Shown: positions 58,823-63,393 of the stretch, piece after piece
Position numbering within the stretch: position 1 is the first letter of the stretch
How the letters are laid out: every line of letters begins with the position of its first letter
Source: an uncultured Verrucomicrobiae bacterium
GTDB taxonomy: Bacteria > Chlamydiota > Chlamydiia > Chlamydiales > Rhabdochlamydiaceae
NCBI GenBank assembly: GCA_963813135.1
Contig: CAWEXY010000011.1
Location: forward strand, 1 to 64,000
Direction of reading: 5' to 3'
DNA length: 64,000 nucleotides
Program-made: the position numbers and the translations under genes
The notes under the pieces: generated by a model
Seen by the model: only the letters and a program-made list of their open reading frames with translations
What the model was told of the DNA's origin: nothing
Databases searched by the model: none

Positions 58823-59278
58823 TTACATCGCTTGGGATTGGTTGTCTTTCTTAGCCAGGTAGTTCTCCTGGTAAGATTTCACATCGTTCACGTGAATGAC
58901 CCATGCAGCGCCTTTGCGAATAGCTTTCATCAAGCCAACGCGTGTCGCGTAATAGATCTTCTGCGCAGGTACGTTTAACATCTTCGCAACTTGATTGACG
59001 GAATAATAACCTTTCATATTGTCAAACAGAAGCTCGCCAGCGTACATCGATTTTGTACGGGAATACTTTTGCTTGCGGTAATCATCCAAGTCATTCAGGT
59101 CAATCGTCCAACGTGCAGCATCTTTAGAAGCTTTCAGCTTTTTTTGCTTAATCGCGACGTAAATAGCTTGGCGCGTGACGTTATTGATCTTTGCTGCTTC
59201 AGTGATGGAAACGACCCGTTTGCCAGAAGTATCTTGCGATTCTTGTGCCGGCATTTGGTGTTGTGGATCGTTAATCAT
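58823..59278 (-). CDS. euo: EUO, chlamydial repressor of late genes (tandem HTH)
   Basis: VSITEAAKINNVTRQAIYVAIKQKKLKA...YSVNQVAKML...KIYYATR...GAAWVI. Confidence 0.95.
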   Translation of the reverse strand: MINDPQHQMPAQESQDTSGKRVVSITEAAKINNVTRQAIYVAIKQKKLKASKDAARWTIDLNDLDDYRKQKYSRTKSMYAGELLFDNMKGYYSVNQVAKMLNVPAQKIYYATRVGLMKAIRKGAAWVIHVNDVKSYQENYLAKKDNQSQAM

Positions 59279-59418: not shown

Positions 59419-59544
59419 GCGCCTTTTGCGGGGGGCGAAAAATCAATGACAAGTTTTATTTTTAATGGCCGGAAACCAGGGAGATACGATAAGCTCCCAA
59501 TTATGATAGACTCGATATGGAAGGGGAATTTTAAGCGACTTGTA

Positions 59545-61446
59545 ATGAGGAGCTTATGCTATCTCCCTCTACTTCTGTGCCTTATAGCGGCCCCTCTCGA
59601 ATCCAAGCCTCCAGAACTCACCCCTAAAGACACGCACCATAAAATCAAAGAAATTCTCAAAGCACATGCCTGCCACCATGAGCTGACCCCGGAGCTTGTC
59701 AAAAGGAGCTTCCATAACTTCCTCGAGGAGCTCGACCCCAATAAGATCTATCTCCTTAAGGGAGAAATAGAAGAGTGGACTAATCCTACCGATGCCCTTC
59801 TGGCACAAGCTCTTGAGCACTTTAGAGCGGAGGATTTTACCATATTCGAAAAAATCCACCACAAAATGAAGGATGCGATTGCGCGCCGCAACCGCCTCGA
59901 AGTCCGTCTAGCAAAAGCAAAGGTTCCCACCGAGGTTGATGCTAAAGAATTCAAAGATATTTCATGGGCCGTTTCGGAAGAAGAGCTGTACGATCGTCTG
60001 CTCAAGATCAAGGGATTGCAAGTGGAGTCGGCAGCGAAATTTGATAAGGAAGTGCAATCATCCTTTTTTCAGCGCATGGACAAACGGCGGCGCATTCGAG
60101 AAGACGAGCTGATCGGCGGCTCCGCGGAAATACAGAAGCAGCATGTTTTAGCGCTCATTCTCAAAGCGACGAGTACCGCCCTCGATTCTCAGACTAATTA
60201 TTTCACGCCGGCAGAAGCGACGCAATTTATGATCCAAGTACAGCAACGCCTCTTTGGCATTGGCGCTCAGCTTCGCGATGACCTCAATGGTTTTACGATC
60301 ACACGCATCTTGGAAGGAAGTCCTGCAGCGCAAGGCGATAAACTCCATGTAGGAGATCGCATCATCGCAGTTAATGATGTTCCCGTCATCGGCATGGAGA
60401 TTACGGAAGCGGTCGAATACATCCGAGGGCCTCAAGGAACTATCGCTCTTTTAACAGTCCTCCGAGGCGAGGAAAAACTCGACATCGATATCACTCGAGG
60501 AGAAATCGTCCTCAAAGAGTCGCGCTTAGAATCCCATGTCGAGCCTTTCGGCGATAAGGCCATCGGAGTGCTCAAACTTTATTCTTTCTACCAAGATCAG
60601 ACTTACTCCTCAGCATCCGATTTAGCGCAAGCGATCAATGATCTTAAAAAAGAACATGACCTCCAAGGCATTATCCTAGATCTGCGCGGAAATGCCGGAG
60701 GTCTTCTTCCGCAAGCCGTCTCCGTCGCAGGACTCTTCATGACTAAAGGCGTCGTTGTCTCTGTCAAAGATAATACAGGAACCATCCAGCATCTACGAAA
60801 TATTGACTCCAAGATCGCCTGGGATGGGCCGCTCATCATCGTTACGAACCGCGCCAGCGCGTCGGCTGCCGAAATCGTCGCTCAAACGCTCCAAGAATAT
60901 GGACGCGGCATCATCGTCGGCGATGAAACAACCTTTGGAAAAGGAACATTCCAGACATTTACCCTCGAATCGACCCACTTGGCAAAAGTAAATCCGAAAG
61001 GAGAATACAAAGTCACCCGAGGCCGCTATTATACGGTATCGGGGAAAAGCCCCCAGCTCGTAGGAGTGAAAGCCGACATCGTCGTTCCAGGGATCTTTTC
61101 AGCGATGGAAGTCGGAGAGCAATTCTCTAAATATCCTCTAGAGACCGACCAAATCGCCCCTAGTTTCGATGATGACCTAATGGATATTCCCGCCCTCCAT
61201 CGCTATCAAGTGTCCAAGCTCTATAAATTTGATTTGCAGCCCATCATGAAGACATATGAGCCCTACATGGGCCTGCTGCGGCGAAACTCCGATCTGCGGC
61301 TCAAAGAAAATAAATATTATCAAAAGTTCCTCGCCGACATAGCAAATAAAGATTTTAGCTCATCCGAAGAGGGCGACATTCAGCTGAAAGAGGCAGTCAG
61401 CCTCATGAAAGACCTCCTCTTCACCATGCACCACCCCTCCGTTTAA
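59545..61446 (+). CDS. tsp: Tail-specific protease (S41, PDZ)
   Basis: Signal peptide from ATG 59545; GIGAQL, DLRGNAGG, SASAAEI, TFGKGTFQ. Confidence 0.95.
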   Translation: MRSLCYLPLLLCLIAAPLESKPPELTPKDTHHKIKEILKAHACHHELTPELVKRSFHNFLEELDPNKIYLLKGEIEEWTNPTDALLAQALEHFRAEDFTIFEKIHHKMKDAIARRNRLEVRLAKAKVPTEVDAKEFKDISWAVSEEELYDRLLKIKGLQVESAAKFDKEVQSSFFQRMDKRRRIREDELIGGSAEIQKQHVLALILKATSTALDSQTNYFTPAEATQFMIQVQQRLFGIGAQLRDDLNGFTITRILEGSPAAQGDKLHVGDRIIAVNDVPVIGMEITEAVEYIRGPQGTIALLTVLRGEEKLDIDITRGEIVLKESRLESHVEPFGDKAIGVLKLYSFYQDQTYSSASDLAQAINDLKKEHDLQGIILDLRGNAGGLLPQAVSVAGLFMTKGVVVSVKDNTGTIQHLRNIDSKIAWDGPLIIVTNRASASAAEIVAQTLQEYGRGIIVGDETTFGKGTFQTFTLESTHLAKVNPKGEYKVTRGRYYTVSGKSPQLVGVKADIVVPGIFSAMEVGEQFSKYPLETDQIAPSFDDDLMDIPALHRYQVSKLYKFDLQPIMKTYEPYMGLLRRNSDLRLKENKYYQKFLADIANKDFSSSEEGDIQLKEAVSLMKDLLFTMHHPSV

Positions 61447-61455
61447 TAAATGATA

Positions 61456-61476
61456 TCAGGCTCGTTCCGAGCCTGA
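61456..61476. terminator. Hairpin downstream of tsp
   Basis: TCAGGCTCG-TTC-CGAGCCTGA 9-bp stem. Confidence 0.7.
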
Positions 61477-61498
61477 GAAAATAAAGTAAGTTTTAAGT

Positions 61499-61788
61499 TG
61501 CCAGAGACAGTCGGGCCCACAGCACTTTGTGCCCGCCGGCTGCTCGCTCGCGCTGCTAAAGCATCGTCGTCTCGCAGACAAAACTGTGAGAATAAATTTG
61601 TTTCTGCGAGCCGACGGTGCCCACGAAGTGGGGACACAGCCGGCGGATTCAAGACACAAAGCGCCATCGGTCCGAACGAGTCGGCGGCAGTACTCCGTAC
61701 GCCGCGACGTGGGAGGATCCGATGGGGCACAGTGGATTGAATCTCAAAGGGGCAATGGGGGACGTCAGTCCCCGATATGTCTATGGCA
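61499..61788. ncRNA. Unidentified highly structured element (candidate ncRNA or MITE-like palindromic element)
   Basis: At least six nested helices closed by a terminal inverted repeat; GC-rich between AT-rich flanks; see findings. Confidence 0.5.
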
Positions 61789-61856
61789 CGATAAAATTTA
61801 ATTTATATAATTTATTTATTTGGGCTCGCCAGAGTCCAAATACTGCTCTCTTAAGC

Positions 61857-61885
61857 TTGAATCGATTGGTCAAAGATACTATACT
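61857..61885 (+). promoter_or_regulatory. Putative sigma66 promoter of gltX
   Basis: TTGAAT-17 nt-TATACT, 8 nt before the ATG. Confidence 0.65.
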
Positions 61886-61893
61886 ATTTCTTC

Positions 61894-63393
61894 ATGAAAC
61901 CTGTACGTGTTCGCATTGCTCCGTCTCCGACCGGCGATCCCCATGTGGGAACGCTCTATATGGCCGTCTTTAACCTCATCTTCGCGCGCCATTTCAAGGG
62001 TAAGTTTTTTGTTCGGATCGAAGATACCGATCGTTCGCGGTCCCGCCCTGAATACGAAGAAAATATTTACAAAGCCCTGCGCTGGGCTGGCATCCAGTGG
62101 GATGAAGGCCCCGATGTCGGAGGCCCCTACGGTCCTTACAGGCAATCCGAGCGCACGGAAATTTATCAAAAGCATGTGCAGGTGCTTCTCGATACTGGGA
62201 AAGCTTACAAATGCTTTGCGACGCCGGAAGAACTCGCTGAAATGCGCGAGATCAGCGCGAAAACAGGGCAGCGCGTCGGATACGACCGCCGCTACCGCAA
62301 CTTAAGTCCTGCTGAAGTCGCCGAGCGCGAAGCCGCCGGCCAACCTTATGTCATCCGCCTCAAAGTCCCTCTGACGGGAGAGTGCGTTTACGAAGATGGG
62401 ATTAAAGGACGCATCACCGCGCCCTGGGCCGACATCGATGATCAAATTCTCCTGAAATCAGACGGGTTCCCTACCTACCATTTGGCAGCCGTGGTCGATG
62501 ACCATCTCATGGAGACTTCCCATGTGATCCGCGGCGATGAATGGATGAGTTCTACGCCTAAGCACATACTGCTCTATCAAAGTTTTGGATGGGAGCCGCC
62601 TGTGTTCATGCACATGCCGCTGCTCCTGGGCAAGGAAGGCAGAAAACTCTCGAAGCGCAAAAATCCTACTTCCATTTTTTACTACCGCGATTGTGGGTTC
62701 TTGCCTGAAGCCCTCGTCAACTTCCTGACCTTGATGGGCTATAGCATGCCCGGCGATCGCGAAATCTATTCCTTAAGCGATATCACAGCCGAGTTCGATC
62801 CCAAGCGCATCGGCGTCTCAGGAGCCTTTTTCGACATCCAAAAGCTGGAATGGCTCAATCAGCAATATCTCATCAAAATGATCCCCGAAGACCAGTTATG
62901 GAACCGTATCCGCAACTGGGGCTTTGCCGATGATTTTATGAAGAAGCTCATGCCCCTCTGCCACACGCGGATCAAGACATTTGGCGAGTTCATGGAACTG
63001 TGCAACTTCTTTTTTATCAATCATATCCCCTACACCGATGCACTCTTTACATCCAGCGATACGCCCAAAGAAAAATCGGCCCACATCCTCCAATGCATTC
63101 TTTGGAGCCTCGATGAACAGGAAAATTGGGGAAGAACGGGCATTGAGCAAGCATCTAAAGACGTCGCAGCAGCCTTTGGCATGCCCCATAAAAAAGTGAT
63201 ACCTATTCTTTACGGAGCAATCATGGGGAAACACCATGGCCCTCCTCTTTATGATTCCTTTGAACTGCTAGGAAAAGATCGATGCCGCGCAAGACTCCTT
63301 CAAGCCATCGACTTCTGCGGCGGGATTTCCAATAAAAAGATGGACGCGCTCGCCAAGGGGTGGGCTGGAAAGACCTTACTTGCCGTCAGCTGA
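61894..63393 (+). CDS. gltX: Glutamate--tRNA ligase
   Basis: [31 protein letters not shown]. Confidence 0.98.

Follow-up and report, generated by a model that had tools for sequence, protein, structure and literature searches.

An internally deleted palindrome between tsp and gltX of an uncultured chlamydia points to an undescribed repeat family of MITE type whose arms share an unusual fold

MITEs are normally tied to a single IS family. The palindromic repeat of environmental chlamydiae described here resembles prokaryotic MITEs such as Correia/NEMIS, RUP, QMITE1/2 and Chunjie, as presented in the available text of PMC10969869, in being non-coding and intergenic, with inverted ends and a variable copy number, and also in its truncated derivatives, its elements inserted into each other and the duplications present in young copies of relatives. 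Unlike those MITEs, it has inverted repeats of about 200-310 bp instead of about 4-30 bp, is GC-rich with a covarying fold of its own in each arm, and ties one core to at least three types of carrier ends instead of a single IS family. With REPINs/BIMEs and their RAYT (PMC3116915, PMC3733652) it has in common hairpin-forming inverted doublets, mosaic copies, placement at gene ends and strand-specific imperfect hairpins, but its arms are ~10 times longer than the 20-40-bp REPs, no RAYT is flanked by arms, and the local RAYT-like genes have a separate REP family. It also departs from REP units with a GTAG or CGTC tag (tags judged by eye), since the arm model spans 174 positions and has another end motif. 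Rickettsia palindromic elements (RPE; PMC10969869, PMC3184786) are likewise long palindromic repeats abundant in an intracellular bacterium, but, compared by description, they measure about 105-150 bp against 430-600 bp here; moreover, whereas RPEs frequently insert in frame into genes, the copies that we examined are intergenic, with no in-frame insertion noticed in the ORF listings around them. Finally, TIMEs and cargo-carrying non-autonomous transposons (PMC4133298) also bracket unrelated passenger DNA with inverted ends, although in TIMEs those ends are the 38-bp Tn3 ones and it is whole elements that work in pairs, whereas the passengers here lie in the loop between half-elements. Taken against these systems, the element works like a MITE, with terminal inverted repeats, dispersed copies with filled and empty sites and target duplications in relatives, although its TIRs are not short and no consistent target duplication was found in the window copy or its genus; it does not behave as a REPIN nor, by orthologous loci and Rfam, as an ncRNA gene. 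We found no description of the family in the main texts (mostly of open-access papers) that were searched; the available text of a MITE review has no mention of 'chlamyd' (PMC10969869), and that of PMC9723776 none of 'MITE' or 'palindrom'. We classify it as an undescribed family of MITE type, unusual in the fold that its arms share.

The DNA stretch analysed (hereafter the window, 64,000 nt) belongs to a genome of 1.83 Mb that is 82% complete (G000), which we compared with that of a congener (G001) and of other relatives. An earlier note had drawn in the tsp-gltX spacer of the window a multi-helix element at 61499-61788, interpreted either as an ncRNA gene or as a non-autonomous palindromic mobile element. 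All its helices are present at their coordinates, and the segment does fold almost completely, with -150 kcal/mol on the + strand (z = -7.7) and -132.9 kcal/mol on the - strand (z = -5.8), none of 200 shuffles being as stable on either strand. It is also, as had been noticed, a GC-rich island in AT-rich flanks: the GC content of the 50-nt bins of 61501-61800 is 0.60-0.70 in four of six and 0.44 and 0.48 in the remaining two, versus 0.30-0.38 in the adjoining sequence. No hallmark motifs of RNase P RNA, tmRNA, SRP RNA or a tRNA had been seen in it. Rfam at E<=10 gave over 60500-62800 a single chance match (20 bits against a 70-bit cut-off) and no family at or near the cut-off over the window element or 10 loci holding full copies. 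The limits of the element were drawn too narrowly, since the left hairpin, the AT tracts and a hairpin at 61820-61839 align with other copies, and it extends over 61456-61840 (Table 1). The left hairpin has a terminator-like score on the minus strand, but it belongs to the repeat; of the loci examined, only those of G000 and G001 have its canonical motif. The AT tract formerly read as promoter-like is likewise part of the repeat, and its TATAAT is private to the window copy.

Table 1. Parts of the window copy and its neighbours, in window coordinates
Feature	Position	Strand	Evidence
tsp (tail-specific protease), left neighbour	59446..61446	+	Pfam Peptidase_S41, TSP_NTD, PDZ
Left outer hairpin, genus-specific outer end	61456..61476		Aligns with outer hairpins of other copies
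Left AT-rich tract, outer hairpin to core	61477..61498		Multiple alignment
Degenerate left core end, family motif TAGACATGTCGGG	61499..61518		Alignment; pairs with 61771-61788
Internal deletion region, about 113-123 nt of left arm	61518..61532		Alignments with full copies
Remaining inner left arm	61533..61578	-	Pairs with 61603-61646
AT-rich central loop; IS/cargo-gene landing site in other copies	61579..61602		Other copies
Inner right arm including GAA-triloop hairpin 61620-61632	61603..61633	+	Sequence, alignment
Intact right arm: self-folding covarying rod and core end	61634..61783	+	Covariance model, z, covariation
Right AT-rich tract	61784..61818		Aligns with tract of other copies, which are without its TATAAT
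Right outer hairpin, degenerate	61819..61840		Alignment
Predicted sigma-70-type gltX promoter, outside element	61857..61885	+	Promoter prediction; similar -35/-10 site in G001, without element
gltX (glutamate-tRNA ligase), right neighbour	61894..63393	+	Pfam tRNA-synt_1c, Anticodon_2

Both pairwise comparison with two full G000 copies and a multiple alignment place a loss of about 113-123 nt in the left arm. The helices are real: the outer stem and the pairings 61522/61655, 61533/61637 and 61561/61603 join inverted arms, and the inner helices beyond them correspond to self-folding of the right arm, because that much of its left partner is gone. What looked like a multi-helix RNA is, on these alignments, a half-deleted palindrome with a right arm deprived of its partner, that is, an internally deleted copy of a dispersed long-palindrome repeat. 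Two full copies of G000 fold with z = -16 and -19 (two tested), and the right arm of the window copy alone with z = -5.8; in this retained arm the + strand fold is more stable than that of the - strand. Scored with a covariance model that had it in its training set, the arm 61634-61783 reaches 118 bits, and it is 59-75% identical to eight other G000 arms. An assembly artefact is unlikely, because contigs from two public DNA runs of different studies match 61394-61544, 61447-61597 and 61779-61929 without differences; one of the two runs may be the source of the assembly. In four public DNA runs no joint across this site was found, and no RNA run was listed as containing the element. In run X3, two 151-nt contigs at window positions 61446 and 61510 (weak evidence, as single low-depth contigs) suggest that a near-identical strain shares this deleted copy but that its left end differs and is closer to the canonical one; if true, ends would still be being exchanged.

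Diverged relatives of the window copy are dispersed over five contigs of its own genome (BLAST, nhmmer), as the mobile-element reading had anticipated. The covariance model built here detects in G000 at least 10 arms at 7 loci, and full palindromes occur at three loci (C3, C7 and C11:78 kb). A full copy consists of an outer hairpin, an AT tract, the core end TAGACATGTCGGG, an arm, an AT-rich loop and then the mirror image, with inverted arms of about 200-310 nt; the 47 distinct full copies are non-coding, have terminal inverted repeats and measure 380-750 nt (median 516). The exact core end was found in 39 of 129 genomes of the family, with 0-56 per genome (control matches, 0-2 per genome), and in 30 of 401 genomes of the phylum. 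The covariance model matched at least 23 of 150 genomes of the phylum in five families and, in the own family, at least 11 of 22 genomes besides G000, with none in 27 genomes of family f28 among the matches listed; at most 18 candidates were scored per genome, so that these counts are floors. In metagenomes the arm is present at 62 of 71 pattern loci; the remaining nine, as well as eight pattern matches in non-chlamydial genomes, were dropped as chance since they had no arm-HMM match. Viral contigs gave 0 matches, and phage and plasmid collections none to the one full copy queried. The copy-richest genome, G013 (99% complete), has 74 ends within one mismatch and mosaic arms: for 0 of 34 was the own partner the best match, the best other arm was at most 93% identical, and segment similarities between arms correlate weakly (0.22-0.40). 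Many contigs end inside these palindromes, which makes copy numbers in draft genomes floors as well.

Several neighbouring observations concern variants and other repeats. At L180, L184, L206, L235 and L552 the terminal 70-180 bp of an arm plus its flank is tandemly duplicated. The palindromic insert in the TPP riboswitch of G000 (C5:9226-9391, L026; see also L437) represents a different family; a relative has an IS982-family element whose terminal repeat begins with the same letters as the end of this insert. A 35-50-bp word (L385:3558-3608) occurs at about eight places in G000, and MITEs of 174-186 bp with plain ISL2-type ends and 3-bp duplications (L037, L230, L294, L452) are also found in the transposase-poor G013.

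The arm fold was studied in an alignment of 46 arms picked by hand from 88 candidates with <85% mutual identity, partial and spurious rows being excluded. The consensus is a rod of 30 pairs, in which 94.6% of the cells are paired and 22 of the 30 pairs show two-sided changes, counts that relatedness inflates and that concern a structure derived from the same alignment. None of 500 shuffles reached any of five covariation measures, and slid controls paired 25-46%; the rod thus covaries across the family, a fold beyond chance. Read toward the element end, purines make up 82% of the internal loops, which contain tandem GA mismatches, triloops are G..A in 34 cases versus T..C in 14, and the forward strand is the stabler one in 38 of 46 arms with RNA parameters and in 45 of 46 with DNA parameters. 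Wobble-type mismatches between arms show no strand preference (120 sense versus 123 antisense in 23 co-directional copies), and lone arms at co-directional sites are sense in 14 cases and antisense in 8 (p = 0.29). The orientation of the arm follows the element end rather than transcription.

Strong folding, the covariation of the rod and the greater stability of its forward strand with RNA parameters are what would be expected if the tsp-gltX spacer encoded an undescribed small RNA, but the locus itself makes this highly improbable. Among the best 30 of 60 genomes with a gltX match (the own genome and 29 relatives), the arm model matched the own locus and a partial remnant in one of the 29 relatives; in 23 of these relatives tsp lies before gltX, the median gap being 134 nt (37 nt in G001). 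Because it is missing at the gltX loci of relatives, the window element is no positionally conserved ncRNA. The specific idea of an ncRNA gene divergent from gltX is likewise not supported, given the retention of the gltX promoter-like site where relatives lack the element and the stabler arm fold being that of the + strand. The 290-nt shape, in addition, is a product of the deletion, the TATAAT is private and Rfam gave no family near its cut-off. Other positions are equally labile: none of seven orthologous spacers holds an arm, five sites with a copy in G001 being without one in G000 and two with a copy in G000 being without one in G001, and one of the orthologous spacers compared is a clean empty site (G000 C13:70459). 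The other reading of the earlier note, a non-autonomous palindromic mobile element, is borne out by the dispersed copies, by this reciprocal presence and absence in the congener, and by the target duplications and near-identical copies of relatives.

Other features of these spacers deserve mention. At two places where G001 has a copy (G000 C10:58638-60254 and C19:23335-24633), G000 has genes for 515 and 432 aa that G001 does not have there, one of them behind a lone outer hairpin. The tsp-gltX spacer is a hot spot, with unrelated palindromes or extra genes in L033, L034, L037, L051, L054, L039 and L045. Left of tsp, window 58823-59278 (-) encodes a protein of 151 aa with two HTH_17 domains, presumably the chlamydial regulator EUO, and in G002 a repeat copy with a decayed transposase adjoins the homologue of this gene product.

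In relatives, arms sit about 40-65 bp inside three different IS-type ends. In G104 they lie ~65 bp inside CAGGG...CCCTG ends, six of nine arms are 98-99% alike, and exact 10-bp duplications flank all three elements for which the retrieved sequence covers the two ends (14 loci examined). Intact ISAs1 transposase elements of the family also begin with CAGGG; ISAs1 follows a 10-bp duplication rule, and the three intact ISAs1-type elements tested had no target duplication. One metagenome contig (L314) shows a CAGG-type end, an arm and then a broken ISAs1 transposase gene, and another (L345) the same end and arm with a different flank. The elements of G200 have GGCATGG-type ends with a single arm about 40 bp further in (two arms in 2 copies); five arms are identical, and 7-9-bp duplications accompany seven of the seven elements with both ends (four exact 8-mers and three with one mismatch; 11 loci examined); these elements gave no IS1595 match. 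The remaining type comprises ends that we take to belong to the ISL2 group. In G002, the 309-bp terminal repeat of L543 (96% complementary, with ATT on both sides) equals an ISL2-type end plus arm and encloses a decayed IS5-family (DDE_Tnp_4) gene abutting the arms, with no inner ends discernible by eye; its N-terminal piece shares 64% identity with the corresponding piece of a transposase-like frame that, elsewhere in the family, lies between plain ISL2-type ends. Arms flanked by outer ends of ISL2 type occur in G065 and G018 too, and plain ISL2-type elements have ANT duplications, such as have been ascribed to bacterial IS5 (PMC4482050). The ISL2-type and CAGGG-type ends that carry arms resemble those of intact ISs in the family; both transposase copies associated with arms, L543 and L314, are decayed, and we found no intact transposase gene flanked on either side by ends that bear an arm.

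Of the dispersed copies with target duplications that would mark a MITE, the dispersal is seen, and the duplications are seen in the relatives G104 and G200; in the genus of the window, seven copies shared no consistent direct repeat beyond their outer hairpins, a single 7-mer at L018 being out of register. Nor did G000, G001 and G013 contain any match to DDE_Tnp_1, DDE_3, DDE_Tnp_4, HTH_Tnp_4, Y1_Tnp or DDE_Tnp_IS1595. G000 has one IS110 and one IS3-like gene, with no arm adjoining either, and G013 a RAYT-like gene truncated at its 5' end with its own REP family; such genes occur in the family (L518, L520, L521 and L523) together with a REP family of their own. As candidate parents we rejected IS481, two close relatives of which have their own ends and no flanking arms, and IS4, which inserts into the arm with its own 10-bp duplication. 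No link to arms was found for RAYT/Y1, IS630, IS110, IS3, IS1595 or extra tyrosine recombinases as mobilisers, and a 12-bp palindromic target built from two core ends showed no enrichment in five genomes. An apparent transposase shortage in 13 genomes with at least seven exact ends was set aside because related genomes are not independent and because variant ends, as in the IS-rich G104, escape the exact motif.

The central loop is a landing pad for ISs and cargo genes. Between paired arms we found genes of the IS481, IS4 and IS701 families, a DUF2442 gene, a weak HNH-like gene, a threonine-aldolase-like gene and one ORF without assignment; one genome also has REP doublets of the RAYT family, placed between arms or next to them. 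Two copies in G336 contain an IS4 element at the same stem position, one of them with an exact 10-bp duplication. REPs have similarly been reported as targets of other ISs (PMC1525189). A nested mosaic in a complete genome of another family (L362-L364) combines the present repeat with an IS4 element and relics of its ends, another small palindrome and an element of IS481, and in G000 (C23:770-3260) a protein-kinase gene that follows a groEL-like ORF has a left end on one side and a right arm on the other and may represent a cargo-bearing copy.

We consider it probable that the 290-nt fold is the inner part of an internally deleted copy of a palindrome repeat of environmental chlamydiae that spreads as a MITE moved in trans by IS transposases acting on its outer ends. 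The folded arm would have joined the ends of at least three carriers (of IS5/ISL2 type, of ISAs1 type and of the type seen in G200) by inserting close to the end of an IS or within a small MITE, after which one end was copied onto the other, and the carrier transposase would then have multiplied the composite. Once the transposase was lost, copies may have persisted, been reshuffled by recombination between arms, suffered deletion of one side and been invaded in the central loop. The window copy would be an old, probably immobile relic that landed past the tsp stop codon and left the gltX promoter untouched. The dispersed copies, their labile positions, and, in G104 and G200, the duplications at outer IS-type ends and the near-identical arms at different loci support this explanation; a genus of the window in which neither carrier nor duplication was found, the absence of a core-boundary duplication (3 bp in 0 of 47 full copies, and no longer repeat above chance) and the intact ISAs1 elements without duplication weaken it. 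More tentatively, and as a possibility that we find somewhat doubtful, the arm could be a selfish folded-DNA hyperparasite, with a structure under selection, which colonises unrelated IS ends (those of IS5/ISL2, of ISAs1 and of the G200 type), passes from one carrier to another across five chlamydial families and forms inverted cassettes that collect genes in the central loop.

Ordinary MITE theory leaves the conserved, strand-specific and covarying arm fold unaccounted for. Alternatively, the arm pair itself might be mobile, as folded ssDNA (REPIN- or attC-like) recognised by some enzyme, inserting at palindromic AT sites, often in small MITEs or IS ends, and hitch-hiking only afterwards. The same core does occur within unrelated outer ends or none recognisable, and 13 nt at its end show sharp conservation, which is in part a consequence of how the motif search was built. 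The sequences immediately beyond the core are more inverted-similar than shuffled partners (5.2 versus 3.5 of 10; 47 copies), also within G013 (4.45 versus 3.77, p about 0.03), and AT borders the core on both sides in 32 of 47 copies, although this is indistinguishable from the repeat itself. The purine-rich loops, tandem GA mismatches, G..A triloops and forward-strand stability with DNA parameters fit such a substrate as well, GNA mini-hairpins being far more stable in DNA than in RNA according to the available text of PMC13037366. No suitable enzyme emerged, however: the arm is present at 0 of 30 Y1-transposase loci and 0 of 25 RAYT-like loci, where the RAYT-like genes have their own REP family; 356 neighbour proteins fall into 246 families, none recurring more than four times, with no transposase family among the 80 scanned; and G013 and G001 have just two XerC/D-like recombinases. 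Since in recent bursts the duplications lie at the outer IS-type ends, we regard an autonomously recognised arm pair as rather unlikely.

Whatever first spread them, the copies might instead be kept by the host as mRNA 3'-end elements, acting as stabilisers or two-way terminators. Gene ends are indeed favoured by the copies, with 14 convergent and 6 divergent among 43 classified full copies versus 166 and 250 of 934 G000 spacers (crude ORF calls); the outer hairpin is terminator-like by score, and MITE transcripts are described as influencing mRNA stability (PMC3733652). Positions nevertheless differ even within a genus, lone arms have no significant sense bias, and avoidance of promoters accounts for the placement without any function, so that host retention seems improbable to us.

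Movement in trans by IS transposases is the reading that we carry forward. The analysis discards a false ncRNA candidate and delimits a family of repeats in uncultured chlamydiae, unusual in that one conserved folded arm travels in the ends of different transposase families. If the arm does change carriers, the family would offer a model of a non-coding parasite that outlives its transposase in closed, host-bound genomes, and its central loop would be a recurring entry point for ISs and lineage-specific genes.
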